DNA from: an uncultured Bacillota bacterium
GTDB lineage: Bacteria > Bacillota_I > Bacilli_A > Culicoidibacterales > ZOR0006
Assembly (NCBI GenBank): GCA_945956935.1
Contig: CAMFJD010000005.1
Coordinates: 23,630 to 87,629, forward strand
Length of the DNA: 64,000 bases
Direction: 5' to 3'
Below the pieces are notes generated by a model that was not told the DNA's origin, ran no database searches, and was given only the letters and a program-made list of their open reading frames with translations. Of the stretch, positions 315 to 16,554 are shown in pieces. A program made the position numbers and the translations under genes. Position 1 is the first letter of the stretch. Each line of letters begins with the position of its first letter.

Positions 315-326
315 CTATATATAAAT

Positions 327-362: not shown

Positions 363-506
363 ATTGTGTAAAAGCACATAATAAGTATGAATTTGATGAA
401 GAGACGCTAAAACATCTCACAAATAATGGTGAATTTTTCAACAAAACCTTGTTTTCACTTGTACACTGATGTACAATAGGAAAAAAATTGGAAGTAGGGA
501 AGTAGT

Positions 507-1334
507 ATGGAAGGACTGACAAAATTACAACAAAAACGCTTTATTCTCATTGGGCTTGGAGGGCTACTCGCAATTTTTATTGCATTTTTTGCTCAAAATA
601 TCAATCAAATTATTTGGACTGGATTGAGTGAAGGGTTGCAACAAATTAGTACAGTGATTGGCCTAGATAATTTGACATCGCTTGGAGATGTTATTTTGTG
701 GACAATGGTTACGGCGATGAGTTGGAAAATTGGGCTGACAGTATTAGGGTATATTTTATTTATTATTGTTGGATTTGTGATTGTTGGACAATACCGTAAA
801 ACGTTACGTCAACAACGTTTAAAACCACAGTGGTATGATGTGTTATTTGAATGGCTTATTGGACTTTTGAGTATTGTACCACTGATTATTTTTATCGTGA
901 GTTTTCTTTTATTTGGGGTGTATGCATTTAATGTTGTACAGGCATTAAACCACTTAAGTTCAACACCACTAGAACCCATTTTAACTGCTTGGAATGATTT
1001 GATCAGTATTTTAAATGGATTTACATTCAATGCAGATACATTGAAAAAAATTATCGATCTTGTACCACAATTGACTTCGGCATTTGCGAATGTGGGTGAC
1101 TTAGCAACGATTTGGAATCAAAGTGTCTTATTTGTTCAACAACTACAAGTAGCCAATACAACATTAGAACTTGTCAAATATAGTGGAGTCATTCTTGTTC
1201 TGATGTTGGATGCATGGATCGTGTATAGTTTTGTACAAGGGTATGATGAGATGTTACCAGAAAATCCAGATGTTCTTGTACAAGATAATGTTCCGGATAA
1301 TTTGAATGTAACGGATACGGAACCGAAATTGTAA
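507..1334 (+). CDS. Hypothetical multi-pass membrane protein
   Basis: 275-aa ORF with about 4 hydrophobic segments, a helical soluble stretch and an acidic tail; purine-rich SD upstream; own terminator; no recognisable motif. Confidence 0.7.
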   Translation: MEGLTKLQQKRFILIGLGGLLAIFIAFFAQNINQIIWTGLSEGLQQISTVIGLDNLTSLGDVILWTMVTAMSWKIGLTVLGYILFIIVGFVIVGQYRKTLRQQRLKPQWYDVLFEWLIGLLSIVPLIIFIVSFLLFGVYAFNVVQALNHLSSTPLEPILTAWNDLISILNGFTFNADTLKKIIDLVPQLTSAFANVGDLATIWNQSVLFVQQLQVANTTLELVKYSGVILVLMLDAWIVYSFVQGYDEMLPENPDVLVQDNVPDNLNVTDTEPKL

Positions 1335-1336
1335 TA

Positions 1337-1366
1337 AGAGGGCACCAATAAGTTGGTGCCCTTTTC
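1337..1366 (+). terminator. Intrinsic terminator
   Basis: AGGGCACCAA-TAAG-TTGGTGCCCT perfect 10-bp stem followed by TTT. Confidence 0.8.
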
Positions 1367-1453
1367 TCAAATGAGAGTTATGGAGTAAACAGGGGAATTG
1401 ATGATATATCACGTGATTGTATTGAAAATAGTAAAAACAAAGGGGGAATTATA

Positions 1454-2188
1454 ATGAAGATAACAAGAAAAGAAATAAAGCTGACTGCAAAACAAAAACT
1501 CATGAAAGATCCATGGCCAATTATAGGTATGGTTTGTATTCCACTTATGGCAATCGTAGGTTTTGATCAGACGTTATTTTATATGAGTGATACAATATTT
1601 ACGAGTATTATTACAATGGTCGTTCAAACGGTTGTTGTGTTTGGGATTACTCGAGTATGTATGAATATGATGCATGATGAGAAATTATCGTGGAGTGATT
1701 TGTTATATGGGTTGTATCACTTGAAATCGGTGCTCGTATTAGGGATTGTTATTATTTTAAAGACAATTCTTTGGCTATGTATCCCAACAGTTATTTTTGT
1801 AGCATTATCGACAATGAGTTTTATGTCGATGATACAGGATGTCTCAAGTGCTAGTATAATTTTAGGAATTGTGTTATTTCTATCAATGTTGCTATACATG
1901 TGTGTGATTATCTTTGTCACGATTCGCTATATGTTTGCATCGTATATATTGATTCATGACCCATCAAAACGCATAAAAGTATGTATTCAAGAAGGAAAGG
2001 AACTAGTGAAAGGAAAATACGTACAAATGTTCTTGTTTGAATGGAGTTTTTTCTGGTGGTTATTACTAGGAGTTGCTACTCTTGGAATTGGGCTACTATT
2101 TACTATTCCATATATGATGTTATCATATGTTGGAGTGTATGATGCATTAGTGCAAGAACAAACTAAGAAAAAAACGATTGAAGTATAA
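1454..2188 (+). CDS. DUF975-family membrane protein
   Basis: N-terminal RKEIKLTAKQKL, several TM helices, C-terminal RYMFASYILIHDP...FEWSFFWWLLLGVATLGIGLLFTIPY pattern typical of DUF975; SD AGGGG. Confidence 0.75.
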   Translation: MKITRKEIKLTAKQKLMKDPWPIIGMVCIPLMAIVGFDQTLFYMSDTIFTSIITMVVQTVVVFGITRVCMNMMHDEKLSWSDLLYGLYHLKSVLVLGIVIILKTILWLCIPTVIFVALSTMSFMSMIQDVSSASIILGIVLFLSMLLYMCVIIFVTIRYMFASYILIHDPSKRIKVCIQEGKELVKGKYVQMFLFEWSFFWWLLLGVATLGIGLLFTIPYMMLSYVGVYDALVQEQTKKKTIEV

Positions 2189-2266
2189 AAAAACACGGAG
2201 GAAGTGCAGTAAATCTATTATTTGGATACCAATAATGTGATTTACCACCGAAACTCCGTGTTTTTC

Positions 2267-3418
2267 TTATGATTTTTTTGTAATATGCGGATAAAAGAAT
2301 AATGTGAATATGAAAGCAATTGCCATGAGCGATCCTGTCATTGTAAAGATGAAAGCGATGCCGAATTGCTCGAAAATGAATCCAGCAATCAAAGTACATA
2401 GAAAAGCACTGAGACCAGCAGAAATGGTTGCTCTGAATGTACTGACTGTTGTTAAAATATGAGGTTCAAAATGAGTAGATAAAAATTGATAAATAGCTGA
2501 AATTGAAATTGGGAAGATAAGCCCTTGTAAAAACATTCCAATCATGACGATTGACCAGTGTGGCGCAAAGAAAAAGAGTAATTGTGCAGTAAACATAACG
2601 AGAATAACGAGTAAAAAAGCACGCTTTAAGCCAAGATAACCGATAACACGGCCTGAAAAATTAAAACTAAAAATTTCAAGTAATGTTGGAATAAACATGG
2701 CAATTCCAATGAGTGTTGCAACAGCACCTAAATCAGTTAACCGTAATGCTAAGTAATTACCCGTTGTGATTCCAACACCTCCTAAAAAAATTGATAAAAT
2801 AGAGATGAAGAGAAAATGTTTATTGTGAAATAGACGCCCAAGCTCTCCCCATTCAAATTTAGTTGTTGTTTGTGTTTGATAATTGGGAAAACGACCGACC
2901 ATAATTCCAGCAATAATCATTAAAATAGCAAAAATAGTAAAAGCGGTTTGAAATCCACCGAGAAATTGGATAATTACCCCAAGTGTTAATGAACCAACGC
3001 CCCACGCAATAGATCCGAACCAGCGAACTTTTCCATATTCAACAGTATCAATGTGTCGTGATGCTTCAATGATAGTCGTATCAGCTAAAGTGAAAATTGG
3101 CTCTAAAAATAAAGCGAAAGTGAAAACAAGAAGTAAGAGTGGGAAAAATCCTTCTGTATTTGAGAGAAGAAGTGATCCAATAGAAGAAGCAAAGAAAAGC
3201 AATTGTAAAATTCGTTTTCGATTTTGAAAACGATCAGCAATGACCCCAATAATTGGTTGGCTCACCATTGCAGCAAAGGAAATTGTTGCTAAAATAATTC
3301 CAATTTCGCTTCCAGATAATCCTTTTGATTCAAGAAAAATAGAAGTTTGGGAGAAAAACAAGGCAGCACACAGAAAGAAAACAGTATAAAAAATACGATA
3401 ATACCAAAGTTGTTTCAT
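2267..3418 (-). CDS. MFS transporter (LacY/MFS_1-like sugar or nucleoside permease)
   Basis: 383 aa, about 12 TM; motif A-like GVIADRFQNRK; YGKVRWFGSIAWG in the LacY/NHS-type position. Confidence 0.8.
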   Translation of the reverse strand: MKQLWYYRIFYTVFFLCAALFFSQTSIFLESKGLSGSEIGIILATISFAAMVSQPIIGVIADRFQNRKRILQLLFFASSIGSLLLSNTEGFFPLLLLVFTFALFLEPIFTLADTTIIEASRHIDTVEYGKVRWFGSIAWGVGSLTLGVIIQFLGGFQTAFTIFAILMIIAGIMVGRFPNYQTQTTTKFEWGELGRLFHNKHFLFISILSIFLGGVGITTGNYLALRLTDLGAVATLIGIAMFIPTLLEIFSFNFSGRVIGYLGLKRAFLLVILVMFTAQLLFFFAPHWSIVMIGMFLQGLIFPISISAIYQFLSTHFEPHILTTVSTFRATISAGLSAFLCTLIAGFIFEQFGIAFIFTMTGSLMAIAFIFTLFFYPHITKKS

Positions 3419-3455
3419 AAATAAAAGCTCCGTTCTTGTATAAATAAATATAGCT

Positions 3456-3515
3456 AGTACCGTTTACAAATTGTATGTGTAATTATTAATGTAAACGTTT
3501 TAATTGTAAACGTTT
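3456..3515. promoter_or_regulatory. Three LacI/CcpA-type operator-like sites upstream of the MFS gene
   Basis: TGTAAACGTTT at 3490-3500 and 3505-3515, plus reverse-strand TGTAAACGGTAC at 3457-3468; resembles the cre consensus TGWAANCGNTNWCA. Confidence 0.5.
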
Positions 3516-3775
3516 GTTTAGCGAAGAACAAGTGTTATTATTTATTTCACTAAAATTCAGAAGGGAGTATGTGTCCGACTGTTGAAAAGAATAGTAAATA
3601 ATGCTATGTTGATCAAACGTATTTTCAACTAATAAAAAATATTAAAGTAGCTGAAATGGTTACCATTCGTTACATTTCGTGGTATGATAAGCGTGAAAGT
3701 CTTAAGCGGCTTACTAATAAAAAGATAACTGCTTAGAAACCTAGAGACAGAGGTAATGAAAGGTGGGAATATACA

Positions 3776-4252
3776 ATGCTAACAATCGATTTTGGCCAAC
3801 AAATTGATGGCGATTATACAAAAGAAGAGCAATTTATTACACAACTTTTAATGAAATTGATTGAAATGGAGCAATTGAGTGAAGATAACCTTGAAGTGAG
3901 TATTACTTTGATGAATAATACCCAAATTCAAGAAATAAATCGTGACTATCGTGGAAAAAATCAACCAACAGATGTGATTTCCTTTGCTTTTGAAGACAAC
4001 GATGATGAATTCCCAATTTTTGGTATGAACGAAGAGATTCCTCGTGTACTTGGCGATATTTTTATTTCGCTTGAACGTGGGAGAGAACAAGCAAATGAAT
4101 ACGGGCATAGTTTTGAACGAGAATTAGGCTTTTTAGCTGTTCATGGATTTTTGCATTTGCTTGGCTATGATCACATGAATGAAGCAGAAGAAAAGATTAT
4201 GTTTACAAAGCAAGAAGCTGTTCTACAAGCGTTTGATTTGCAACGTAGATAG
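3776..4252 (+). CDS. ybeY: rRNA maturation endoribonuclease YbeY
   Basis: NRDYRGKNQPTDVISF, LGDIFIS and HGFLHLLGYDH zinc motif. Confidence 0.95.
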   Translation: MLTIDFGQQIDGDYTKEEQFITQLLMKLIEMEQLSEDNLEVSITLMNNTQIQEINRDYRGKNQPTDVISFAFEDNDDEFPIFGMNEEIPRVLGDIFISLERGREQANEYGHSFERELGFLAVHGFLHLLGYDHMNEAEEKIMFTKQEAVLQAFDLQRR

Positions 4253-4357
4253 TGTGAAGATGAATAGAAAATAAGAAAGGAAGTCGATTTGTTTACATAA
4301 ATTATTGCTAAATGCATACGCATTGCTAAGAATAAAACAAATTGATACTGAGAACAT

Positions 4358-4756
4358 ATGGATTATCAACATTTAATTACAGCTGCAGTGAAGGCATTAG
4401 AGCACACGTATTCACCATATTCAAAATTTCGTGTAGGTGCAGCATTGCTATTAAAAGATGGGACAATTGTACTAGGAGCAAATATTGAAAATATCTCATT
4501 TGGTGCTACAAATTGTGCTGAACGTAGCGCGATTTTTTCAGCATTAAGCCAGGGATATAAAGCGAGTGATTTTGTGGCTCTTGCAGTGACTGGTGATACA
4601 GAAGAGCCAATTGCTCCGTGTTGTATTTGCCGTCAAGTACTTGTTGAGTTTTTTAAACCAACGACACCAATCATTTTACATACAACAAAAACAAATAAAC
4701 AAAAAGTTGTTACGCTCGGAGATCTTGCACCGTATAGTTTTTCAAGTTTTGAATAA
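4358..4756 (+). CDS. cdd: Cytidine deaminase (homotetrameric type)
   Basis: YSPYSKFRVGAAL, CAERSA and PCCICRQ zinc-binding motifs; 132 aa. Confidence 0.95.
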   Translation: MDYQHLITAAVKALEHTYSPYSKFRVGAALLLKDGTIVLGANIENISFGATNCAERSAIFSALSQGYKASDFVALAVTGDTEEPIAPCCICRQVLVEFFKPTTPIILHTTKTNKQKVVTLGDLAPYSFSSFE

Positions 4757-4840
4757 TACCATTTAAAAAATACTGGCTTTCGCGAGTGTTTTTTACTATG
4801 TTATAAAACAAATATGAACGAGTAGAGAGGGGGACAGTGA

Positions 4841-5677
4841 ATGAAAAAATTGAGTCTGGGTATATGTATTGTTTGCATAGTGGGAGCAATATATGTCTAT
4901 TGGCAAAACAACAGTTTAGTTATCAGTATGTATGAATATCGAAATCAGCAAATTGCAATTGAGTTTGAAGGGTTTAAAATTGTACAATTAAGTGATTTGC
5001 ACAATCATAGTTTTGGAGATAAACAACAACAATTAGTTGAACAAGTCAATCGAATTAATCCAGATATCATTGTTTTTACAGGTGATATTATTGATTCATA
5101 TAGAACAAATTTTCAAAATGCATATGATGCGGTTGAAGAACTGCAGAAACTTGCTCCAGTCTATTATACTGCTGGGAATCATGAAGCACGAATCATGGCG
5201 TATCCTGAATTTGAGCAAGGGTTATTGAAACGAGGTGTCCATGTATTACGAAATGAAATTGCGTTGTTGGAGCGTGGTGATGCAACTATTTCCCTCATCG
5301 GCTTAGATGATGCTGATTTCTTTGGGAATGATGAGCTTGGATTGAAGCGAGGAATGGTAACAAAATTAAATCAGTTACAAGCAGCAGTGAATAGTAATTT
5401 CTATGTTTTGCTTAGCCATCGACCGGACTATTTTGAGTGGTATATAAGTGAATCAGTTCCACTCACCTTGAGCGGACATGCTCATGGTGGACAGGTGCGC
5501 GTGCCTTTTACAGATGGATTATTTGCACCTGGTCAAGGGTTTTTCCCAAGCTATACGAGTGGGATGCATACACAAGAGGAATCAACACTTATTATTAGTC
5601 GCGGTTTAGGGAATAGTATTTTCCCAATTCGTGTGCAAAATCGACCGGAGATTGTTGTTGTCACATTACACAGATAG
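4841..5677 (+). CDS. Membrane-anchored metallophosphoesterase (calcineurin-like, YkuE-type)
   Basis: SDLH, GDIID, GNHE, LSH and GHAH motifs; N-terminal TM segment. Confidence 0.88.
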   Translation: MKKLSLGICIVCIVGAIYVYWQNNSLVISMYEYRNQQIAIEFEGFKIVQLSDLHNHSFGDKQQQLVEQVNRINPDIIVFTGDIIDSYRTNFQNAYDAVEELQKLAPVYYTAGNHEARIMAYPEFEQGLLKRGVHVLRNEIALLERGDATISLIGLDDADFFGNDELGLKRGMVTKLNQLQAAVNSNFYVLLSHRPDYFEWYISESVPLTLSGHAHGGQVRVPFTDGLFAPGQGFFPSYTSGMHTQEESTLIISRGLGNSIFPIRVQNRPEIVVVTLHR

Positions 5678-5790
5678 TAGGTATAGGGAATGTGAAAATG
5701 GATGTTGTTTATCCATTTTTTTCTTTAAATGATTCAGTCAAGTATATTTCCTTTTCCTGTAGTTTCTTTTTTGGTACTCAGCGAGTAAAA

Positions 5791-5827
5791 AGTGCGTACT
5801 TCACACACTCGTTTGATTTGATATACT
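5791..5827 (+). promoter_or_regulatory. Promoter with AGTGCGTACTT motif overlapping the -35
   Basis: AGTGCGTACTT at 5791-5801, whose last TT begins TTCACA; TATACT at 5822-5827 (16-nt spacer). Confidence 0.55.
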
Positions 5828-5860
5828 TAAAAACGCAGGATTTATAAGGAGGAATATAGC

Positions 5861-6370
5861 ATGAAAAATACACAAGCATATCCACGTGCATTTTCACATA
5901 TCGGTTTATCAGTGCCAGATATTCATATGGCAGTGCAATTTTATACGGAGGTGATGGGTTGGTACATAGTTATGGGACCAACAACAGTCGTTGAAGAAAC
6001 AGACACAGCGATTGGTATTATGTGTCAAGATGTTTTTGGTGTAGGCTATGAGAATTTTGACATTGCACATTTAGTAACTTCAGATGGCATTGGTGTCGAA
6101 TTATTTTCTTTCCAAGATTATGTGAAACCGGAAAATAATTTGACTTTCCGTCAAATCGGTGTTTTTCATTTTTCGGTACAAGATCCAGATATTGAAGGAA
6201 TGGTAGCGAAAATTGTGGAACATGGTGGAAAACAACGTATGCCGATTCGCGAATATTATCCGAATGAACAACCATATAAAATGTGTTATGTAGAAGATCC
6301 GTTTGGAATTGTTTTTGAGGTGTATACACATAGTTATGAACGTACATACTCACAAGGTACATATAATTGA
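5861..6370 (+). CDS. VOC/glyoxalase (lactoylglutathione lyase-like) family protein
   Basis: FSHIGLSVPD, GVELFSF, FHFSVQDPD and EDPFGIVFEVY metal-binding pattern; SD AGGAGG. Confidence 0.85.
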   Translation: MKNTQAYPRAFSHIGLSVPDIHMAVQFYTEVMGWYIVMGPTTVVEETDTAIGIMCQDVFGVGYENFDIAHLVTSDGIGVELFSFQDYVKPENNLTFRQIGVFHFSVQDPDIEGMVAKIVEHGGKQRMPIREYYPNEQPYKMCYVEDPFGIVFEVYTHSYERTYSQGTYN

Positions 6371-6377
6371 GTATAAT

Positions 6378-6413
6378 AAAAAGCGATTATCCCCTAGGGC
6401 ATAATCGCTTTTT
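6378..6413. terminator. Bidirectional terminator overlapping the hxlR-family stop codon
   Basis: AAAAAGCGATTAT ... ATAATCGCTTTTT 13-bp arms between convergent genes; the regulator's TAG (6394-6396) lies in the loop region. Confidence 0.8.
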
Positions 6414-6765
6414 GAGCCTCATCTTTTGATACAATTGGAATATGTTGCGTTTGAGCATAGTTGATGGACCAATCACAAAGGGATTGAACGATTGGAATTA
6501 AGCGTTCACCTTCTTTGGAGAGTGTATACTCGACTTTTGGGGGAACGATAGGGTAGACAGTTCGAATAATAATACCATGAGCTTCTAGTTCGCGAAGTTG
6601 CTGTGTTAACATCTTTTGGGTTACACCTGGTAAATGACGCTTTATCTCACTAAACCGTTTGGTACCGTCAATGAGGTACCAAAGAATAATGAGTTTCCAT
6701 TTTCCACCAATAATATCAATTCCAAGAGCTAATGAGCAAAAATATTCATCTTTTAAATTTTTCAT
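6394..6765 (-). CDS. HxlR/DUF24-family winged-helix transcriptional regulator
   Basis: N-terminal Cys (YFCSL), IIGGKWKLIIL, RFSEI, TQKMLTQQLRELE and VPPKVEYTLS. Confidence 0.92.
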   Translation of the reverse strand: MKNLKDEYFCSLALGIDIIGGKWKLIILWYLIDGTKRFSEIKRHLPGVTQKMLTQQLRELEAHGIIIRTVYPIVPPKVEYTLSKEGERLIPIVQSLCDWSINYAQTQHIPIVSKDEAQKAIMP

Positions 6766-6812
6766 AAATTAAGACTCCTTATAGTATCATTTTAGTAACT
6801 ATGGATTAAAAT

Positions 6813-6850
6813 AGTGCGTACTTGCCTTGACACTGTAGTGTTTGTATACT
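6813..6850 (+). promoter_or_regulatory. Promoter with second AGTGCGTACTT motif overlapping the -35
   Basis: AGTGCGTACTT at 6813-6823; TTGCCT 6822-6827, 17 nt, TATACT 6845-6850. Confidence 0.6.
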
Positions 6851-6935
6851 GAACTATAACGGAAATATACATGTTTGACAAGTCATAAAATAATGAATAT
6901 TTTGATGTGTACGAACAATGTTTGGAGGGAAAGAT

Positions 6936-7763
6936 ATGCAAAAACGACCAGAATTACAATTAGTTAATGGAGTTGTTATGCCACAAGTTGGATTTGGGAC
7001 ATTTAAAGTAGAAGAAGGAAAGCAAGTCGTCGATGCAGTTTGCTATGCTTTACAAGCAGGATATCGACATATCGATACAGCAGCGGTATACGGAAATGAA
7101 TCTGGTGTTGGAGCAGCGATTCTTAAAAGTGGATTGCCTAGAAAAGCGATTTTTATTACTAGCAAAGTGTGGAATGCTGATCAAGGATATGATCAGACGC
7201 TGAAAGCATTTGAGCAATCACTGGCAAAATTGGGAGTGGAGTATTTAGATCTATATCTTATTCATTGGCCGAAAACGGCAGCAAAAACTGCCGATACATG
7301 GCGTGCATTAGAAGAGCTTTATATGAATGGAAAAGTACGTGCTATCGGTGTATCTAACTTTAAAGAACACCATCTTACAACGTTGTTTGAAACAGCAAGA
7401 GTAAAACCAATGGTGAATCAAGTTGAATTACATCCTCAATTTTCACAAGCAAAACTGATTGAGTTTTGTCAGCAACATGATATTATTGTGCAAGCATGGG
7501 GACCTTTGATGCAAGGAAAAGTATTTGATATTGCCGTATTAAAAGAATTAGCAATCAAGTATACAAAAAATGTTGCACAAATTGTTCTCCGTTGGCATGT
7601 ACAAAAGGGAATTGCTCCGTTACCAAAATCATTACATCAAGCAAGAATCATTGCTAATTTAGCTGTGTTTGATTTTGAACTATCACAAGCAGATATGCAA
7701 ATAATAGATGCACTTGAAACAGGTGTTAGGATTGGACCAGATCCAGATAAGATTAACTTTTAA
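6936..7763 (+). CDS. Aldo/keto reductase (AKR5/YvgN-like, methylglyoxal-type)
   Basis: GFGTF, IDTAAVYGNE (Asp/Tyr), ITSKVW (Lys), LYLIHWP (His), IGVSNF; start placed at the ATG after SD GGAGG. Confidence 0.92.
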   Translation: MQKRPELQLVNGVVMPQVGFGTFKVEEGKQVVDAVCYALQAGYRHIDTAAVYGNESGVGAAILKSGLPRKAIFITSKVWNADQGYDQTLKAFEQSLAKLGVEYLDLYLIHWPKTAAKTADTWRALEELYMNGKVRAIGVSNFKEHHLTTLFETARVKPMVNQVELHPQFSQAKLIEFCQQHDIIVQAWGPLMQGKVFDIAVLKELAIKYTKNVAQIVLRWHVQKGIAPLPKSLHQARIIANLAVFDFELSQADMQIIDALETGVRIGPDPDKINF

Positions 7764-8034
7764 TATTTATAAGTGTATGTTGTGGATCAGTGTTACCCCA
7801 CAATAAAATGATGTGTGGTAAACCAACAAGTGGGATAGGATACAATTTACACAACGTAGGATTGATTTCTGTAGTAAACAGGAGTCAGTCCTTTTAAATA
7901 TTGCATTGTTGATAGAATCAGTGCTGATCGATTGACTATGTTTGTGCATTTGAATTTCGCTTGCAGCACAAACTTTCGCTACAATCAAGCATTAAAATAA
8001 TAAATCGAACACATCATTTTTTAAAAAACAGCAG

Positions 8035-8077
8035 AAAAAAACTGTATCAATCTGAATGAATTCAAATCGATACAGTT
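8035..8077 (-). terminator. Minus-strand intrinsic terminator
   Basis: 17-bp stem at 8040-8056/8061-8077. Its two + strand mismatches (A8049/C8068, C8052/A8065) become G-U pairs on the - strand; UUCA loop; U tract at 8035-8041. Confidence 0.75.
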
Positions 8078-8541
8078 CATTGTATGCTCGTATTTTTGCT
8101 TTATTGTGTGCATGGCAATACACATACTTTTTGTAAGATGTACGATTAATATATCTACACTAAAAATGGAATGACGTTTATACATAGCGTTCATATACTA
8201 GATGAAATTAGGTGTTTTTCATCTAGTATGCATGCGTAAGGATATGCACGGTAGTCCTAATTTATGGGTATGAATGAGACTCACATATCCAATACATTGC
8301 TGTAGTAATTAAGATATTTGATTATGTTTCGTGTTTTTTTGAGGCAAATAAATATTGTGATAAATATTGTCCTATCTTCGAAGGATTTCTCTCGGTAAAT
8401 AACCCGTTGAGAATGTTTAATACTGTTAAAGCAAAAATAAATAGCGATACATAGTTATGTAATTTTTAATTATAGAAAGAAAAAATTTTGGATTGATACA
8501 CTACTTTTACTCCCCTTATTACCTCCCTTTCCTTATAAGAT
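8035..8541 (-). ncRNA. Putative ~500-nt orphan transcript (sRNA or small-peptide mRNA)
   Basis: Bounded by a sigma-A-like promoter (8548-8576) and a strand-specific terminator; contains SD-like 5' motifs and hairpins but no long ORF. Confidence 0.4.
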
Positions 8542-8547
8542 ACCATT

Positions 8548-8576
8548 AAGTTATCACAATCTGTTGATTTAGTCAA
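8548..8576 (-). promoter_or_regulatory. Sigma-A-like promoter on the minus strand
   Basis: TTGACT (8576-8571), 17 nt, extended TG-n-TAACTT (8553-8548). Confidence 0.5.
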
Positions 8577-8811
8577 ATATTTTACTCACGCTTTTTGTTA
8601 AGTTATCTTGATTGAATCAAAGCGGATTTGAGTGTGTAATCATTTAGCACGGTTGACTTTTATTTTAATAAGCAGTAATAGTTAATTTTCTCCTTTCTCT
8701 AGCTCTGAGGAGTGTGAATTCAATTGAAATGTTAGTAGGTACCGCTCGCTGTTATTTCGGACTGTTTTAGGGTATAATGGTAGTAGGATTTTTTCAAGAG
8801 AGGAACTTTAT

Positions 8812-9534
8812 ATGCAACCAATTATTCACATTTCACAATTTGAAGGTCCTTTTGATGTGTTACTTCACTTTGTGAAACAGGCAAAGGTCGAGATTGATCA
8901 GTTGCCACTTGCTGAAATTACGCAACAGTATTTAGCGTTTATTGCTCAAATGCAAGAATTAAATTTAGAAGTAGCGAGTGAGTATCTTGTTGTAGCGGCA
9001 CAATTAATCGAGATTAAGGCTCGATCACTTTTACCAAAACCACAGCCGCCACTGGCTGAAGATGAAGTCGATCCGAAAGAAGCGTTAATTGCTCGGTTAA
9101 TTGAATATCAAAAGTATAAAGAGATGAGTGATATTTTATCAGAATATGAAATAGAACAAAAACATTATTTTTTTAAAGAGGCAAGTGATGCGGCAGAATG
9201 GTATATCGATGAAGAACCACGCCTAATTGCGAATCAGTATGATTTATTTACATTGGTAAAAGCATTCGAACGAGCAATGCAAAAACACGAACAACAAGCA
9301 GATGTAGTGATTCATCATGAGCGATTATCGGTTGATGAGCAAGTATTACTGATTCGAAAACAGTTGCGCAAACAACCAATTCTGGATTTTGAGCAGCTAT
9401 TTACTATTTATAATCGATCATATATTGTCACAACCTTTTTGGCATTGTTACAAATGATGCGTGATGATGAAATTACGGTTGTACAGACACAAAATTTTGA
9501 AACTATTAAAATAAGTTGGAAGCGGTTAGTATGA
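8812..9534 (+). CDS. scpA: Segregation and condensation protein A (SMC kleisin)
   Basis: FEGPFDVLLH, ASEYLVVAAQLIEIKARSLLP and IVTTFLALLQM. Confidence 0.93.
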   Translation: MQPIIHISQFEGPFDVLLHFVKQAKVEIDQLPLAEITQQYLAFIAQMQELNLEVASEYLVVAAQLIEIKARSLLPKPQPPLAEDEVDPKEALIARLIEYQKYKEMSDILSEYEIEQKHYFFKEASDAAEWYIDEEPRLIANQYDLFTLVKAFERAMQKHEQQADVVIHHERLSVDEQVLLIRKQLRKQPILDFEQLFTIYNRSYIVTTFLALLQMMRDDEITVVQTQNFETIKISWKRLV

Positions 9535-10133
9535 TGAAAGAATATTTACAAGTAATAGAAGGATTATTATTTATTCAAGGTGAAGACGGTGTAAGCACGC
9601 AAGAAATTGCTGGCACACTTGCAATAGATGAAAATCAGGTGTCTCATTTAATTCATGAACTCATGGATACGTATGAGGGGCGAGGTTTGACAATTTTACA
9701 TACAAGCGGAAAATATCGACTAGCAACGCGAAAAGAACACAGTCAGTATTATCAACGTTTTTTTTCCCAACCAAAGCGACAAACATTATCGAAAGCATCG
9801 CTTGAAGTGCTTGCTATTATTGCGTATAATGCACCGATTACAAGAGCAACGATTGAACATATTCGTGGTGTGTCTTGTGAAAAAGCAATCAAAACATTAT
9901 TACAGTATGAACTAATTCAAGAAGCAGGGCGTGAAAGTAGTGTTGGACGACCAATGTTATATGCGACAACTGATATGTTTCTAGACTACTTCGGCCTTGT
10001 TTCACTTGCAGAATTACCACCATTAAGAGACGTAAAATTGGATGATGTGCAAGCTGAGGTTGACTTGTTCATGACACGTTATCAAGAGGAAACACCAGAC
10101 GAACTTGAAGAGGAACAACCACAACTCGTATAA
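9531..10133 (+). CDS. scpB: Segregation and condensation protein B
   Basis: IEGLLFIQG, LSKASLEVLAIIAYNAPITRATIEHIRGV, GRPMLYATT.FLDYFGL; ATGA overlap with scpA. Confidence 0.93.
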   Translation: MMKEYLQVIEGLLFIQGEDGVSTQEIAGTLAIDENQVSHLIHELMDTYEGRGLTILHTSGKYRLATRKEHSQYYQRFFSQPKRQTLSKASLEVLAIIAYNAPITRATIEHIRGVSCEKAIKTLLQYELIQEAGRESSVGRPMLYATTDMFLDYFGLVSLAELPPLRDVKLDDVQAEVDLFMTRYQEETPDELEEEQPQLV

Positions 10134-10161
10134 AATAAATGTGATGAAAGGAGAAGCATTG

Positions 10162-11937
10162 ATGCCAAGAACACCAATAATTGATGAAAAACTAAAGCTC
10201 TTACCTGATCAACCAGGTTGTTATTTAATGCGGAATGACCATAATGAAGTCATTTATGTAGGGAAAGCAAAAGTACTCAAAAACCGAGTGCGATCATATT
10301 TTACTGGTGCTCATGAGGGGAAAACGTTGCGGCTCGTTCAAGAAATTACTGATTTTGAATATGTTGTTGTAACGAGTGAAGTCGAGGCGCTCGTGCTTGA
10401 AATTAATCTCATTAAAAAGTATCATCCAAAGTATAATATTAAACTAAAAGATGAAGGGAGTTATCCTTTTTTAGCACTGACAAAAGAAGCGCATCCACGC
10501 GTTATTTTAACTCGTGATGTGAAGCGTGAGTATCAGGCAGTGTTTGGGCCATATCCAAATGTGAAAGATGCACGTGAAACACTTGAGATTATTCATCGAA
10601 TGTATCCGTTTCGAAAATGTGAGCAACTCCCTAAAAAAGAGTGCCTGTATTATCATATTCATCAATGCTTAGCTCCCTGTATTTTAAATGTTGATCAAGC
10701 TGAATACAAACAACTCGCGAGTGATGTCCAACGGTTTTTAAAAGGTGATCAAAATGATGTGATTGCCGATTTGGAAGCAAAAATGTATCGTGCAAGCGAG
10801 CAATTAGAGTTTGAACAAGCTATGGAGTATCGCGATTTAGTACAAGCAGTAAAACGGATTGCGACACAATCACTCGTGCAACAAAAAGATTTGGATAATC
10901 ATGATTTTTTTGGTTTTTACTACGACAAAGGTTGGTTGAGTGTGCAAGTTTTTTATATGCGTGAAGGGAAGTTAATTGAACGGAAGTCAAACATTGTACC
11001 ATACGTTGATGATCCTTTCGAAGCAATGACAACTTTTATTGCTCAATTTTATCAAAGTCGAAACAATTTGAAGCCGAAAGCAATTTATACGTCTGCTTTA
11101 CTTGACTGTGAATTGTTAAAATCGTATCTTGCTATTAAAGTACTAGTACCGCAACGTGGGAATAAGCACAAACTATTACAATTGGCGAATGAAAATGCAA
11201 AAAAACAGCTTGAGACCCAGTTTGCATTACTAGAACGAAATGAACAAAGGACGTTTGGTGCTATACGTCATTTAGGTGAGATTTTAGGAATTGAGATACC
11301 AACACGAATTGAAGCATTTGATAATTCGAATACTGGCGATGTTGAGCTAGTGAGTGGAATGGTTGTTTACACAGATGGCCAACCGAATCGAAAGGAATAT
11401 CGTCGTTTTAAGATTCAGACAGTAGAGGGACAAGACGATTATCAAGCGATGCGCGAAGTGATTTATCGCCGCTATCTTCGTGTCATTAAAGATAAGTTAG
11501 CGCAGCCATCATTGATTGTAATTGATGGTGGTATTGGTCATGTTCAAATTGCAAAAGATGTATTGGTAAGTTTAGAACTATCAATCCCCGTTGTCGGTCT
11601 GCTTAAAGATGAAAAACATCGTACTGCTCAACTGTTGGATGGGAATACAATGAATATTGTTGATTTAGATAAGCACTCGGAAACATTTTATTTGTTGCAG
11701 CGTATCCAAGATGAAGTGCATCGTTATGCGTTAGAATATCATAAGTTACGACGAAGTAAAGCAATGGTTCAATCAGCCTTAGATAATATTGCTGGACTTG
11801 GGCCTAAACGTCGACAACAGTTGTTGGCTTTTTTTGGAACGGTTGGTAATATTAAGCAAGCGAGCATTGATGAATTGGCGAAAGTTGTACCGAGACAATT
11901 AGCCGAAAAAATATATGTAAAATTACAGGAGGAATGA
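10162..11937 (+). CDS. uvrC: Excinuclease ABC subunit C
   Basis: GIY-YIG (PGCYLM..VIYVGKAK.LKNRVRSYF), RIEAFDNSN, LIVIDGG, LQRIQDEVHR and C-terminal HhH; start after SD AAAGGAG. Confidence 0.96.
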   Translation: MPRTPIIDEKLKLLPDQPGCYLMRNDHNEVIYVGKAKVLKNRVRSYFTGAHEGKTLRLVQEITDFEYVVVTSEVEALVLEINLIKKYHPKYNIKLKDEGSYPFLALTKEAHPRVILTRDVKREYQAVFGPYPNVKDARETLEIIHRMYPFRKCEQLPKKECLYYHIHQCLAPCILNVDQAEYKQLASDVQRFLKGDQNDVIADLEAKMYRASEQLEFEQAMEYRDLVQAVKRIATQSLVQQKDLDNHDFFGFYYDKGWLSVQVFYMREGKLIERKSNIVPYVDDPFEAMTTFIAQFYQSRNNLKPKAIYTSALLDCELLKSYLAIKVLVPQRGNKHKLLQLANENAKKQLETQFALLERNEQRTFGAIRHLGEILGIEIPTRIEAFDNSNTGDVELVSGMVVYTDGQPNRKEYRRFKIQTVEGQDDYQAMREVIYRRYLRVIKDKLAQPSLIVIDGGIGHVQIAKDVLVSLELSIPVVGLLKDEKHRTAQLLDGNTMNIVDLDKHSETFYLLQRIQDEVHRYALEYHKLRRSKAMVQSALDNIAGLGPKRRQQLLAFFGTVGNIKQASIDELAKVVPRQLAEKIYVKLQEE

Positions 11938-11939
11938 CA

Positions 11940-12524
11940 ATGAAAACAATTATTTTAGCAAGTAACAATGCACATAAAGTTGCAGAATTCCAAAAATTGT
12001 TTGCTCCGTGTGGAATTGAAATTTTGAGCTTGAAGTCGATGCAGATTAATATTGATGTAGAAGAAACAGGTGCAACATTTGCCGAGAATGCGATATTAAA
12101 AGCAGAGGCCATTGCAGCATTAACACAACTACCAGTCTTGGCTGATGATTCAGGATTAGAAGTCGATGTTTTGAATGGAGCACCAGGTGTTTATTCAGCA
12201 CGTTATGCAGGAATTCACGGCGATGATGCAGCCAATAATGCCAAATTATTATATGAATTAATTGAAACACCACTTGAGGCTAGAACAGCACAATTTGTTT
12301 GTGCAATTGCTTATGCAAAGCCAAATGAAAAAACACAAGTTTTCAGCGGAGTATGCAAAGGTCATATAGCACTGAATACAGATAAAGAAGGTGGTTTTGG
12401 TTATGATCCATTATTTGTTCCAGCAGGGTATAGTCAGACTTTTGCGGAATTAGGCAATGATGTAAAAAACACGATGAGTCATCGTGCGAAAGCATTTGAA
12501 TTATTAATACAATCTTTTTCATGA
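11940..12524 (+). CDS. rdgB: dITP/XTP pyrophosphatase (RdgB/HAM1)
   Basis: ASNNAHK, EETGATFAENA, ADDSGL, APGVYSARY, GFGYDPLF and SHR motifs. Confidence 0.95.
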   Translation: MKTIILASNNAHKVAEFQKLFAPCGIEILSLKSMQINIDVEETGATFAENAILKAEAIAALTQLPVLADDSGLEVDVLNGAPGVYSARYAGIHGDDAANNAKLLYELIETPLEARTAQFVCAIAYAKPNEKTQVFSGVCKGHIALNTDKEGGFGYDPLFVPAGYSQTFAELGNDVKNTMSHRAKAFELLIQSFS

Positions 12525-12775
12525 TAATAGTAGAAAACACCACATTATTTTTATAGGGAAATAATAGGGTGTTTTTTTGTGTTAATATTTATTGTGATAG
12601 TATAGATAGTGAGTGATAAATATACGGAATTTGCAAAAAAAGCTTACAATAGCGAACTTATATGAAGAAACAGACAATTTTACTTTAATAAATAGTTGAT
12701 TTTAACATAAAAAATTGAGTCCGAGAATACTTTCAGTTACAATAAATTCAAACCGAAATAAGAGGAGGGCTTTTT

Positions 12776-13474
12776 ATGCCTAAAGATAAAAAAATAATTT
12801 TAGTGGCCAACTGCTTGTTAAACCCATATTGTCGTGTTCATGTACTAGGCAAAAATTTTCCATTGACACATGAATTGACTGCTTATTTAGCAAATACGAA
12901 GACAGGTGTAATTCAATATCACTGTCCAGAACTTACAAGTGGTGGTTATAATCGTAACCCTCAAGGCAGAGTTCAATATGATAACACTTTTTTTAAAGCT
13001 CACTGTCGTGAAGTATTGCAGATGCCATTACAAATGATTGAAGAATTTGTTGCAAATGGTTATCGACTCACAGCATTTATCGGTTTGCAAAATAGTCCGA
13101 GTTGTGGGGTATATTGGGGGAAGCACAAGGAAAATAAATATGGTTACGAATCATGGATGGAAAGTGATGAAGTATCGAATAATACACAATTAGGCGTTAT
13201 GACAACAATTATTGTAGAAGAATTAGTAAAAAGAGGAATAGAAATCCCATTGATTGAATTTCCGTTGAGTGCTCCAATTGGAAGTGAGGAGCATCGTAAA
13301 TTTTGGTATGAGGTACGTCAGGCAGTTGAACCTAAAAATCCATATATAACCTATGAGAATGCCGAAGATTTTCGTGCATATTTTTTAACAACAAATCACT
13401 ACAATGAACCAGAATTAGCCTATAAAGAAATGCGAGCAAATAAAGAAGTGGTTGATTCAGAACTAAAAAAATAA
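12776..13474 (+). CDS. TudS/DUF523-related putative [4Fe-4S] desulfidase (CD3072-like) with C-terminal extension
   Basis: Three Cys in ANCLLN, HCPE and SPSCG, the TudS-family cluster-ligand pattern; QYDNTFFKAHCR segment. Confidence 0.65.
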   Translation: MPKDKKIILVANCLLNPYCRVHVLGKNFPLTHELTAYLANTKTGVIQYHCPELTSGGYNRNPQGRVQYDNTFFKAHCREVLQMPLQMIEEFVANGYRLTAFIGLQNSPSCGVYWGKHKENKYGYESWMESDEVSNNTQLGVMTTIIVEELVKRGIEIPLIEFPLSAPIGSEEHRKFWYEVRQAVEPKNPYITYENAEDFRAYFLTTNHYNEPELAYKEMRANKEVVDSELKK

Positions 13475-13729
13475 AAAATATAGAAATGTACCTATTAATT
13501 ATTATTGACGTAAACAAGCAGTGGTTATGGTGGAGTATACTGCTGACTAAGTTCGGTGAGTTTATCTGTTATGAAGTATCTACTATGTCTGTGCTAGTAG
13601 TTTTCTAATCTATGTATGCTTGATTATTACGCGAATTTATGGTAAATTTACGGAGAAAAAACAATGAAAATCTTACTATATGCTATCGTGTGTATGAGGC
13701 AAGATTTTTGGCAAGAAGTGGAGAAACAA

Positions 13730-14272
13730 ATGGGCAAAACAAAATTACGCAAAACAGCCATGGGGAATATGGTGAATACAGACTCTGAAACACAAACAGA
13801 AATAAAAACGCCAAAAGTATGTTATGAAAAAGCGGTTTGGTGGAAATGCTTAGTGGCTTATGCAATAGACTTAGCTATCTATTCGATTGTAGCTTTTATT
13901 TTTGTTTTGAGCATGCAAGTCTACGCTGTTGAGGGTGAACAGACGTATAGTATGTTTATGATGTTATGTTTAGCAATTTCATCAGTATATTTATCGGCTG
14001 TACTTCCAAAATTTGTTCCTGGGCAAACGGTTGGGCGAATCATTATGAAAATTCGGTTAGATGCAACAAAAAAACCACTATCATATTGGCGTTACTTCTT
14101 ACGCGAATTTATGGCGAAAATCAGTATGGTTATCGTACTTATTCCTATGAGTGTACTATATGGTGGAATTGAATGGTTTCGTAAAAAAGAGCGACCAACT
14201 ACAATTATGTTAGATGAACTATTTCATACAACAACAGTTGATTTAACAAAACCTATATCAACACAAAAATAA
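13730..14272 (+). CDS. RDD-family membrane protein
   Basis: AYAIDL, GQTVGRIIMKIR, YFLRE and LDELFHTTTV pattern; start at the ATG after SD GGAG. Confidence 0.75.
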   Translation: MGKTKLRKTAMGNMVNTDSETQTEIKTPKVCYEKAVWWKCLVAYAIDLAIYSIVAFIFVLSMQVYAVEGEQTYSMFMMLCLAISSVYLSAVLPKFVPGQTVGRIIMKIRLDATKKPLSYWRYFLREFMAKISMVIVLIPMSVLYGGIEWFRKKERPTTIMLDELFHTTTVDLTKPISTQK

Positions 14273-14340
14273 AACATCAAAACTAAAAACTCTTTCATTT
14301 TCTTTGATTAAGGGTTTTTGTTTTATGAGGAGAGAAACAC

Positions 14341-15549
14341 ATGCAATCATTACGCCATTTATATAAAATCGGTCGTGGCCCATCAAGTTCACACACAATG
14401 GGTCCAGAACGAGCGGCTCAAGACTTTCAACTAAAATATCCAGCCGCACATTATTATCGTGTGCATTTATATGGAAGTTTAGCTGCCACTGGTGTGGGAC
14501 ACTTAACTGATTGGATTATTCACGAAACAATGCGACCAAAAATCGTTGAAATTGTTTGGCAGGCAGATGTTGTTAAAAAATTTCATACAAATGCAATGGA
14601 GTTTTTTGCGTGTGATGTTCATCACGAAGTATTAGGAAGTCAATTGTATTATTCAGTTGGTGGCGGGGACATCGTTGTTGAAGGTCAAGGGCGCCAAGAA
14701 ACAGCAGACGTATATCCTTTTGTAGATTTTCACGATATGGTACAATGGTCTCGTAATGAGCAAAAAGAATTATGGGAAATTGTTGATACTTATGAAGATG
14801 AAACTATATGGGATTTTTTACAGCAAGTATGGGATGTAATGCATACAGCTGTTGAAGAAGGATTAGGAAAAAAAGGTGTATTACCAGGTCAATTAGCAGT
14901 ACAACGAAAAGCAAAACTCATGTATGAACAAGCGATTCAAGAAAAAAATCCAAAAATGCGTGAAAATAAAAAAATTGCGGCGTATGCGTATGCTGTGAGT
15001 GAACAAAATGCGGATGGTGGAACAATTGTCACAGCACCAACATGTGGGGCGTGCGGCGTATTACCGGCAGTATTATATTATTTAGCTCATGACTGTAAGT
15101 ATTCAAATAAACAGATTTTACAAGGATTAGCAGTTGCTGGTCTCGTCGGAAATGTAATTAAGCGAAATGCATCTATTTCCGGAGCGGAAGCTGGATGTCA
15201 AGCCGAAGTTGGAAGTGCATGCTCAATGGCAGCTGCAGCATACGGTCAAATGAATCAATTTCCACTGGCACAAATTGATACAGCCGCAGAAATTGCGATG
15301 GAGCATCATCTTGGTTTAACGTGTGATCCTGTTGCTGGATTTGTTCAAATACCATGTATTGAGCGAAATGCAGTAGCAGCTTTACGTGCGATTGATGCAG
15401 CGATGTTAGCAAGTGTTGTGAGTGATTCAAATCATTTGTGTTTCGATCAAGTAGTTCAAACAATGTTAGAAACAGGTCGTGATTTACACGAAGGGTATCG
15501 TGAAACATCATTGCTAGGATTAGCAAAGTTTTATCAAACAAAAGCATAA
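14341..15549 (+). CDS. sdaA: Fe-S-dependent L-serine dehydratase, single-chain alpha/beta
   Basis: GRGPSSSHTMGP, LYGSLAATGVGH, TAPTCGACG, GCQAEVG, LGLTCDP and VQIPCIERN. Confidence 0.93.
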   Translation: MQSLRHLYKIGRGPSSSHTMGPERAAQDFQLKYPAAHYYRVHLYGSLAATGVGHLTDWIIHETMRPKIVEIVWQADVVKKFHTNAMEFFACDVHHEVLGSQLYYSVGGGDIVVEGQGRQETADVYPFVDFHDMVQWSRNEQKELWEIVDTYEDETIWDFLQQVWDVMHTAVEEGLGKKGVLPGQLAVQRKAKLMYEQAIQEKNPKMRENKKIAAYAYAVSEQNADGGTIVTAPTCGACGVLPAVLYYLAHDCKYSNKQILQGLAVAGLVGNVIKRNASISGAEAGCQAEVGSACSMAAAAYGQMNQFPLAQIDTAAEIAMEHHLGLTCDPVAGFVQIPCIERNAVAALRAIDAAMLASVVSDSNHLCFDQVVQTMLETGRDLHEGYRETSLLGLAKFYQTKA

Positions 15550-15572
15550 TGATAGAGGGGAATCAGTGATTT

Positions 15573-16055
15573 ATGAAAAGGACGGATTGTTTAAGTTGGG
15601 ATCAATACTTTATGGGGATCGCTTTATTATCAGCACAGCGAAGTAAAGATCCTTCGACTCAAGTAGGTGCATGTATTGTCAATCAAAAACAACGTATCGT
15701 AGGTATTGGTTATAATGGGTTTCCATATGGATGTCACGATGATGAGTTTCCATGGGGGCGAGATGGATCCTTTTTAGAAACAAAGTATCCGTATGTAGTA
15801 CATGCAGAATTAAATGCCATTTTGAATAGCAGTGAGAATTTAACAGGCGCATCATTATATGTGTCATTATTTCCATGTAATGAATGTGCAAAAGCGATTA
15901 TTCAAAGCGGTATTTGCGAACTTGTATACATGTCTGATAAATATGATGGGACAAGTGAAAATGAAGCATCGAAGAAAATGTTGGCTGCTGCCGGCGTAAA
16001 GTGGCGTCAAATTCCAATACTTTCACTCACTATCACACCAGAATTTGAGGAGTAG
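15573..16055 (+). CDS. dCMP deaminase (ComEB family)
   Basis: [18 protein letters not shown] and FPCNECAK zinc motifs. Confidence 0.93.
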
Positions 16056-16062
16056 TTTTACA

Positions 16063-16554
16063 ATGAAACAGTTTTTTCAACCAAAACATATGTATCAAAC
16101 GTGTACTGCGATTGATTTACATGCGTTAAAAATAGCAGGAATTGAAGCTTTGATTGTTGATTTAGATAATACCTTGGCGAGCTGTGAAGAAGATTTTGCA
16201 TCTAAAAGCTCACAAGCATTTATTGAAGAGGCGAAATCACTTGGATTTACTATTGTTATGATTTCAAATAATATGCGATCACGTGTCGAACCTTTTGCAC
16301 AGCAACTTGATGTTGATGCAGTTTGGTTTGCAATTAAGCCATCACCACTTGGCTTTTGGCGTGCGCGCAAATATTTACAAAATATTCCGAGTCATAAAAT
16401 TGCAAATATTGGTGACCAAATATTGACAGATGTCTTTGGAGGGAAATTGATGGGTTTTCACACAATTCTTGTGAAACCATTAATTCCAAAAGATAATATT
16501 TATGCAAAACCGAGCCGTTTCCTCGAACAGCTCCTTGCAGTGGATTTTGATTAA
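16063..16554 (+). CDS. yqeG: YqeG-family HAD IIIA phosphatase
   Basis: DLDNTL, ISNN, KPSP and IGDQILTDVFGG motifs. Confidence 0.88.
   Translation: MKQFFQPKHMYQTCTAIDLHALKIAGIEALIVDLDNTLASCEEDFASKSSQAFIEEAKSLGFTIVMISNNMRSRVEPFAQQLDVDAVWFAIKPSPLGFWRARKYLQNIPSHKIANIGDQILTDVFGGKLMGFHTILVKPLIPKDNIYAKPSRFLEQLLAVDFD

Follow-up and report, generated by a model that had tools for sequence, protein, structure and literature searches.

The 1-kb spacer upstream of scpAB in an uncultured Bacillota bacterium of the ZOR0006 lineage contains a real orphan RNA gene, which is abundant, selectively constrained, and outside every described family. This conclusion was drawn from the analysis of a DNA stretch of 64,000 nt, referred to here as the window, combined with searches of assembled sequencing runs. 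The reading that we consider rather likely is that of an independent and stable RNA gene of ~0.5 kb, located on the minus strand, which is not a conventional mRNA and whose product is a probable riboregulator.

The window belongs to contig 5 of an assembly of 1.84 Mb (99.8% complete, 35% G+C). The source bacterium is uncultured, and the window DNA is present in fish-gut metagenomes. Its ScpA protein displays 80 to 84% identity to its counterparts in "Firmicutes bacterium ZOR0006" and in two Culicoidibacterales MAGs. The gap under study (7764 to 8811) separates scpA from an aldo-keto reductase gene for which a recognizable terminator of its own was not found. A first-pass annotation had described this gap as free of ORFs, and its largest ORF indeed does not exceed 73 aa. 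In a congener (G002), the order reductase-scpA is kept and the spacer is ~390 nt long and unrelated. In ZOR0006 itself (G001), a sugar-kinase-like gene is located 170 nt upstream of scpA. The last ~60 to 100 nt before scpA, including promoter GGTATAAT, form the only stretch that is alike across the congeners, indicating that roughly positions 7764 to 8700 are species-specific.

The signals that delimit the predicted transcript, together with the other features of the locus, are listed in Table 1. The promoter proposed in the first-pass annotation (TTGACT-17-TGnTAACTT) is present on the minus strand at 8576 to 8548. This promoter relies on the TG extension and on a -35 box matching the consensus at five of six positions; it was not called in a simple consensus promoter scan because its -10 box matches at three of six positions only. 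The terminator is the sole terminator-like site detected by the scan between 7500 and 9000. Its stem is formed by 8078 to 8061 and 8056 to 8039 and is followed by a T run. On the plus strand, this stem has two mismatches, A.C at 8049/8068 and C.A at 8052/8065, which become U.G and G.U pairs in the minus strand, as had been noticed from the sequence. In one strain lineage, an A>G substitution at 8049 replaces the U.G pair by C-G, thereby strengthening it. The predicted 5' end is uncertain within 8524 to 8544, and the 3' end is located near 8032 to 8038. Two additional candidates were found at chance level and were discarded, namely, a 10-nt direct repeat (TTAAGTTATC) flanking the promoter and a complementarity between the 5' and 3' parts of the RNA (I3).

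Table 1. Features of the orphan RNA locus and of its neighborhood (positions in the window)
Feature	Position	Strand	Basis or remark
Aldo-keto reductase gene	6918-7763	+	Left neighbor of the gap
Truncated IS3-family 3' end (last transposase codons and right inverted repeat)	7802-7897	-	138 nt downstream of the terminator
Predicted primary transcript, ~507 nt	8035-8541	-	Bracketed by promoter and terminator; RNA-run contigs inside; few variants
Intrinsic terminator (18-bp stem, 4-nt loop, U run)	8032-8078	-	Terminator scan
Long-range helix, 3' arm UAAAGCAAAAAUA	8091-8103	-	Predicted; arms 323 nt apart
Perfect 13-bp hairpin (8229-8217 with 8207-8195)	8195-8229	-	9-nt loop AACACCTAA (I5)
Hairpin GGATATG (8290-8284)/CATATCC (8246-8240)	8240-8290	-	Direct reading
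Long-range helix, 5' arm UAUUUUUGCUUUA	8427-8439	-	100% complementary (I4); predicted pairing probability of ~1
Mini-ORF GTG-YQSKIFSFYN-TAA, 11 codons	8466-8501	-	8 nt behind AAGGGGAG
Predicted 5' hairpin, GGAAAGGGAGG paired with UUUUUCUUUCU (8484-8474)	8474-8532	-	MFE fold and pairing probabilities
5' purine tract AAGGAAAGGGAGGTAATAAGGGGAG	8510-8534	-	Candidate STAB-SD-type stabilizer
SD-like site 1 GGAAAGGGAGG	8532-8522	-	Part of the 5' tract
SD-like site 2 AAGGGGAG	8517-8510	-	Part of the 5' tract
Extended -10 TGaTAACTT (TG, 8556-8555; -10, 8553-8548)	8548-8556	-	Direct reading
-35 box TTGACT	8571-8576	-	Direct reading; 5/6 match; 17 nt upstream of the -10
scpA	8812-9534	+	Right neighbor of the gap

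Expression of the locus was analyzed in four RNA runs with host labels, namely, X17, X23, and X24 (host organism B), which belong to one study, and X25 (host organism D), which belongs to another. Contigs were recovered at 8089 to 8256 (X25), 8098 to 8275 (X23), 8214 to 8402 (X17), and 8333 to 8524 (X24), each with 0 or 1 difference from the window (99 to 100% identity). The interval 8089 to 8524 was the only part of positions 1 to 20000 of the window with contigs in these runs, none being detected for the reductase gene, scpAB, uvrC, 7500 to 8088, or 8525 to 9100. Over the four runs, 727 of 2,028 possible nucleotides of the RNA (36%) were recovered at a contig depth of 2 to 3.5x, which is a crude measure of abundance. 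For the 20-kb rpsL-fusA-tuf-S10-spc region, coverage over the four runs was at most ~4.6% for two co-resident species taken together (12, 3, 2, and 0 contigs in the four runs). The RNase P and 6S loci of the genome had contigs in none of the four runs. The RNA stretch is represented far above its neighbor genes, the ribosomal-protein mRNAs, RNase P RNA, and 6S RNA. By the crude contig measure, the orphan RNA can safely be said to be one of the species' best-represented transcripts in vivo.

Assignment of the RNA to this species took into account the presence of a relative in the same host. Contigs of the tmRNA locus were found in three RNA runs (depth of 4 to 26). Those of X17 and X24 agreed with the ZOR0006 (G001) allele at all of the variable sites listed, that of X23 was a third variant with only some G001 sites in common, and the own-type tmRNA of the species was detected in none of the four runs. 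The rpsL contig of X17 carried precisely the 13 differences by which ZOR0006 is distinguished from this genome, and the rpsG contig of the same run carried none of ~16 diagnostic differences and matched this species. Both species were therefore present in that host, and the orphan RNA was assigned to the species studied here.

The contigs carry no direction, and the single adapter-bearing contig of the RNA locus (X17) contains 12 adapter letters, which are too few to discriminate between read 1 and read 2. A tmRNA contig with adapter sequence suggests that the study comprising X17, X23, and X24 used dUTP-stranded libraries. From the promoter and terminator, we infer that transcription proceeds on the minus strand, starting near 8541 and ending near 8035. 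Thus, the ~500-nt unannotated RNA put forward in the first-pass annotation is backed as a transcript by contigs confined to 8089 to 8524, its strand being deduced from the two signals. In X26, a run labelled "RNA?" (host organism A), a contig at 7965 to 8115 spans the terminator, indicating some read-through or the presence of DNA in that library.

Constraint within the species was evaluated with variants called from DNA-run contigs, at least five strain lineages spanning the locus. The block extending from 8035 to 8541 contained four variants in 507 nt, three of them at 8049, 8192, and 8251 and the fourth in an A run at 8334, whose length differs by 1 nt. Sampling of variants is poorer in the center of the block, where contigs are interrupted at ~8120 to 8284 in two of the four main DNA runs. 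A further variant, at 8444, was present in one RNA run only. The flanking spacers (7764 to 8034 and 8542 to 8811) contained 23 variants in 541 nt, including deletions of 11 nt and 1 nt (Fisher's test for 4/507 versus 22/541, P of ~5e-4). Both flanks varied 4 to 5 times more than the RNA block, and variant density inside the RNA was equal to that of the two flanking coding genes. Within the species, the RNA block evolves about as slowly as coding sequence. The variant-poor block (8018 to 8577) coincides with the interval from the -35 box to the terminator, the nearest strain variant beyond the -35 box being located at 8578, just outside the box. Constraint bounded in this manner by the promoter and terminator speaks for the proposed transcript. 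It speaks against an unconserved, decayed gene remnant, of which no protein trace was detectable in the block. We read the orphan RNA as being under purifying selection.

The 5' end of the predicted transcript is rich in GGA and SD-like motifs, in agreement with the first-pass annotation. Positions 8531 to 8519 of the purine tract would form a duplex of -13.2 kcal/mol with the canonical anti-SD sequence, which was used since the assembly does not include the 3' end of the 16S rRNA; among random genomic 12-mers, -12 kcal/mol is reached by only 0.07%. By direct reading, no start codon is suitably spaced for the first SD-like site, the nearest being ~20 nt away. The second site precedes the mini-ORF (MYQSKIFSFYN), which is the only ORF of either strand with a proper SD and spacing and is free of strain variants. 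In the predicted 5' hairpin, GGAAAGGGAGG is paired with a U/C-rich stretch, and the second SD and the GUG codon are in the loop. A 57-aa frame (8194 to 8021) lacks an SD and crosses the terminator and the U tract, and most strains have ATA in place of its first ATG (8192 C>T). Homologues of this frame were not found among 1.84 billion protein representatives, which returned one spurious repeat match. Six-frame pieces of the gap had no match in Pfam and one marginal match in PHROG (function unknown, E = 0.007). Comparison of the stop-to-stop ORFs of the genome with the gap (tblastn) matched only the C terminus of an IS transposase, at 7845 to 7897, and reading TGA as Trp (code 4) opened no longer frame. 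Besides the 11-codon mini-ORF, there is no credible conventional protein gene in the RNA block. A dual-function sRNA, one of the possibilities initially raised, could be retained through this mini-ORF only.

The minus strand of the block folds at -112 kcal/mol with a z score of -5.6, versus -3.2 for the plus strand. For the RNA body alone, the z scores are -4.9 and -3.7, respectively. In the predicted fold, an A/U-rich linker connects the 5' hairpin to a 13-bp long-range helix, absent from the first-pass list of hairpins, which encloses a multi-hairpin body of ~320 nt. A long A/C-rich single strand is predicted at 8343 to 8316. Of the hairpins that had been listed, the perfect 13-bp hairpin at 8195 to 8229 stood, and its loop (AACACCUAA) holds the anti-SD-like sequence CACCU. 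The GGATATG and CATATCC motifs are also present, but the global MFE fold does not use them as a hairpin and pairs this region otherwise. Two perfect 13-bp inverted repeats were observed, versus an estimate of ~0.01 expected in 0.5 kb of the same composition. Structure in this RNA is beyond chance, the fold itself being a prediction.

Database searches did not connect the RNA to any family. Rfam had no match at the RNA locus at the gathering threshold in a search of the whole window. At E <= 10 over 7600 to 8900, csRNA and miRNA models alone matched, through hairpins and below threshold; no riboswitch, T-box, or leader family did. BLAST comparison of the gap and of the RNA with 7 other genomes of Culicoidibacterales and 33 further Bacilli detected no copy of the RNA; within the genus, only noise and the IS remnant were obtained at E <= 10. 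There was no match to the RNA in phage and plasmid collections, and exact-motif scans of genome and metagenome contig collections gave 0 matches. The Rfam and covariation check that had been suggested was therefore negative for Rfam, and covariation lends no support to the fold since homologues are absent. The locus was also rejected as the tmRNA, RNase P RNA, or 6S RNA gene of this genome, which are located at C26:3927-4276, C3:34205-34585, and C23:20420-20621, respectively; the first-pass annotation had likewise recognized no tmRNA or RNase P signature.

The IS3-family piece is the sole repeated part of the gap. It is present in at least 8 copies in the genome, and in the other copies, the part upstream encodes ..YYNTKRISVKLKGLTPVQYRNQS... 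This remnant is common to all sampled strains, indicating that the spacer was remodelled by a mobile element before strain divergence and that the RNA has been constrained since. The RNA gene is confined to this species and probably arrived or arose in the IS3-remodelled spacer.

In an explanation that we hold to be unlikely, the unit is a transcribed relic consisting of the strong promoter, long leader, and attenuator of a gene lost upon insertion and subsequent truncation of the IS3-family element, abundant and functionless. The proximity of the truncated IS end to the terminator, the finding that no congener has the unit (the spacers between AKR and scpA or upstream of scpA being short and unrelated in these genomes), and the fact that no function could be assigned to the RNA are all in line with this explanation. 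However, the occurrence of the remnant in all sampled strains implies that the deletion is older than strain divergence, and it is since that divergence that the flanks have gained 4 to 5 times more variants than the RNA block. The unmatched riboswitch, T-box, and leader models, even at E <= 10, also argue against a relic leader. We give little credence to a micropeptide mRNA or dual-function RNA, in which the mini-ORF (8501 to 8466) would be translated from AAGGGGAG and the structured rest would be a 3' UTR. This is the sole ORF with a proper SD, at a spacing of 8 nt, it is variant-free, and the predicted fold leaves the SD and the GUG codon in a loop. Nonetheless, the peptide would comprise 11 residues with no signal or membrane segment and matches no known peptide class. 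In addition, constraint spans all ~500 nt rather than just the first 75, and a conserved 3' UTR of ~430 nt would still require a function at the RNA level.

It is very unlikely that the signal stems from the plus strand or does not originate from RNA, as would be the case for read-through of the reductase gene towards scpA or for DNA carry-over. The lack of direction in the contigs, the lack of a recognizable terminator behind the reductase gene, the X26 contig spanning the terminator, and the good folding of the plus strand (z = -3.2 and -3.7) would be compatible with such a source. Yet read-through or DNA would also cover the flanks, which are bare: the four runs had no contigs on the reductase gene, scpA, 7500 to 8088, or 8525 to 9100. 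Furthermore, the scans of the plus strand detected neither a promoter left of the covered block nor a terminator beyond its right end, and the variant-poor block stops at the minus-strand -35 box and terminator. Scarcely credible, finally, are the type I toxin-antitoxin locus and the sponge for a GGA-binding protein such as CsrA, both of which had been offered in the first-pass annotation. The GGA-rich motifs of the 5' end could be taken to suggest the sponge, and a weak plus-strand promoter-like site (8171 to 8199, 9/12 match), for which no plus-strand terminator was found, could yield an antisense RNA. But csrA (PF02599) was not found in this 99.8%-complete genome, although it was detected in control genomes, and Hfq and FliW were not found with approximate query sequences. 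By direct count, the 507 nt contain ~6 to 7 GGA motifs versus ~5 expected by composition; 3 or 4 lie close together at the 5' end, and the motifs are not presented by a series of hairpin loops. The sponge was dropped on these grounds, as was the toxin-antitoxin mRNA, neither strand containing a hydrophobic ORF of 20 to 60 aa with an SD.

The large effector RNAs of Firmicutes include RNAIII (RF00503) of Staphylococcus aureus, VR-RNA of Clostridium perfringens, and Pel/sagA of Streptococcus pyogenes, which are likewise ~0.5 kb in length and very abundant. The orphan RNA resembles RNAIII in standing alone as a unit, with a promoter and an intrinsic terminator of its own and with many predicted hairpins. 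A short ORF near the 5' end, a stem-loop with an anti-SD-like sequence, and action without Hfq (here proposed) complete the likeness. The RNAIII covariance model did not match at the gathering threshold in the window or at E <= 10 over 7600 to 8900. RNAIII is divergent from an agr-type operon (agrBDCA), whereas the RNA described here is flanked by scpA and the aldo-keto reductase gene; the window has its LytTR/AgrC-like cassette ~21 kb from the RNA locus. RNAIII depends on a LytTR regulator (AgrA), whereas the promoter described here appears constitutive, with a near-consensus -35 box (5/6) and a 17-nt spacer; direct reading revealed no paired 9-bp LytTR repeats at 21-nt phase at this promoter. 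The mini-ORF has 11 codons versus 26 for hld, and there is one CACCU loop versus several UCCC loops in RNAIII.

The hairpin at 8195 to 8229 resembles the first hairpin of the streptococcal cia-dependent csRNAs (RF02379), with a long A/U-rich stem and a loop (AACACCUAA) similar to the csRNA anti-SD loop CCUCCUAA of the Rfam alignment. The score was 27.4 bits (E = 0.42) for a gathering score of 57, and the first hairpin alone aligns. The csRNAs are 90 to 140 nt long and depend on a CiaR promoter, whereas the hairpin found here is one module of a 500-nt RNA. Large Firmicutes noncoding RNAs (OLE, ROOL, GOLLD, HEARO, and raiA) are alike in their length of several hundred nucleotides, abundance, structure, and Bacilli host. 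Their models gave no match even at E <= 10, and they are conserved across many genera, whereas the RNA described here is confined to one species.

A parallel for the 5' end is provided by STAB-SD, the 5' stabilizer of the Bacillus thuringiensis cry3A mRNA, which blocks RNase J1 (PMC4113751), and by the hbs mRNA of Bacillus subtilis, which is protected from RNase J1 by ribosomes (PMC5737220; PMC4113751). The likeness resides in a strong SD-like sequence lying near the 5' end that serves no normal gene: in the orphan RNA, the duplex with the assumed canonical anti-SD reaches the -13.2 kcal/mol given above, and no normal ORF is started. Known elements stabilize protein-coding mRNAs, whereas the orphan RNA has no downstream gene, and a stabilizing role of its tract is suggested by analogy.

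On the reading that we favor, a stable minus-strand RNA gene with a probable riboregulatory product, the following mechanism may be proposed. A constitutive promoter of the sigma-A type (TTGACT, 17 nt, TGnTAACTT) would start the RNA near 8541 on the minus strand, and the 18-bp intrinsic terminator would halt it near 8035. The very strong SD-like tract, a few nucleotides from the 5' end, would bind 30S subunits or initiating ribosomes, non-productively at the first SD site, the second serving the 11-codon mini-ORF. Binding of ribosomes or 30S subunits to the 5' tract may block 5'-to-3' decay by RNase J1 in a STAB-SD-like manner; the genome carries genes for RNases J1/J2 and RNase Y. The 13-bp long-range helix would lock the body, and the terminator hairpin would shield the 3' end. 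In the least certain step, the RNA would probably act as a trans-acting riboregulator, by analogy with the effector RNAs considered above, its exposed loops pairing with mRNAs with no need for Hfq or CsrA. Candidate exposed regions are the CACCU loop on the 13-bp stem and the A/C-rich single strand at 8343 to 8316. A search of the genome for trans targets gave a best complementarity or similarity of 16 nt, equal to the level of shuffled RNA. The complements of the CACCU loop were mostly located inside coding sequences, as Leu-Gly-Val codons.

It would be a long shot to regard this RNA as the first representative of a novel type of large, very abundant RNA, present in gut symbionts of the ZOR0006 lineage and not acting by pairing with mRNAs. 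In one version, it would be a 30S- or ribosome-binding RNA, the very strong 5' SD tract and the closed body titrating or parking ribosomal subunits. In another version, it would be released to the host, by analogy with the SsrA RNA that Vibrio fischeri releases to its squid host (PMC7665748). Release to the host, if true, would explain the ready pick-up of the RNA in host-labelled RNA libraries of several fish studies.

Our analysis indicates that a strong orphan transcription unit can occupy a spacer remodelled by an IS element. In the guts of fish, crustaceans, and insects, ZOR0006-type bacteria belong to the taxa that are reported most often, and we know of no work on their RNA biology. As a probable riboregulator under purifying selection, the orphan RNA is a concrete candidate lineage-specific regulator of a bacterium that appears to lack both Hfq and CsrA.

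The body of the orphan RNA, the predicted minus-strand transcript between the aldo-keto reductase gene and scpA, is predicted to be closed by a perfect long-range inverted repeat that was missing from the features listed by the first-pass annotation. Between the start region of the mini-ORF (8491-8508, AAAAGUAGUGUAUCAAUC) and the terminator's 3' arm together with its U tail (8035-8052), complementarity amounts to 83%. This complementarity could allow pairing of the 5' and 3' ends or an alternative, antiterminator-like fold; its perfect core of 9 bp is at the level expected by chance. Around the promoter, one copy of the direct repeat TTAAGTTATC overlaps the -10/start region and the other is located upstream of the -35 element, an arrangement that could correspond to a pair of operators. 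The length of this repeat is close to chance expectation, and position 8607, in the upstream copy, is polymorphic.

Repeats and insertion sequence remnant at the orphan RNA locus (window coordinates)
Feature	Coordinates	Strand	Description
Long-range inverted repeat	8427-8439 and 8091-8103		Perfect, 13 bp; predicted to close the orphan RNA body
Direct repeat TTAAGTTATC	8546-8555 and 8598-8607	+	Exact, 10 nt; copies 52 bp apart
IS3-family insertion sequence, truncated 3' end	7802-7897	-	Last transposase codons (..LKGLTPVQYRNQS..) and right inverted repeat

The IS3-family end located beside the orphan RNA is present in at least eight copies in the genome (contigs C26, C2, C37 [two copies], C47, C22, and C4), and its depth in metagenome contigs is 5 to 25 times that of the flanks. 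Its 40-nt core was also detected in other families of the order at 88 to 93% identity. No recognizable intrinsic terminator was found downstream from the aldo-keto reductase gene (7764-7800). The counterpart of this gene in G002, a congener, has a clear terminator of the hairpin-plus-T type behind it (locus L012, 1117-1150). The scpA gene of G002 is interrupted (L012, contig C314, 2100-2930), the match being split into residues 1 to 200 and 193 to 240 with one TGA, probably as the result of an assembly error in this fragmented MAG.

In the metagenome DNA runs X8 and X9, assembly contigs are interrupted within 8120-8285: one break is at 8120-8146 and the other at 8268-8285, flanking the region that contains the 13-bp hairpin. 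Mixed alleles in these samples (positions 8192 and 8251) could account for the breaks. Because the genome assembly containing the window (G000) lacks the 23S rRNA and the 3' end of the 16S rRNA, the anti-SD sequence of the species itself could not be read. The csrA gene is absent from this assembly as well, and hfq and fliW were not found in whole-genome searches based on approximate queries.

In RNA runs from host organism B, the tmRNA of X17 and X24 (locus L022; G000, contig C26, 3927-4276) is of the ZOR0006 type, matching ZOR0006 itself (G001) at all listed variable sites, as does rpsL in X17 (locus L021, the rpsL-tuf region). Run X23 contains a third tmRNA variant (L022). The rpsG gene and the orphan RNA detected in this host originate from the species of the window. 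Thus, two congeners, ZOR0006-type bacteria and the species of the window, are present together in host organism B.
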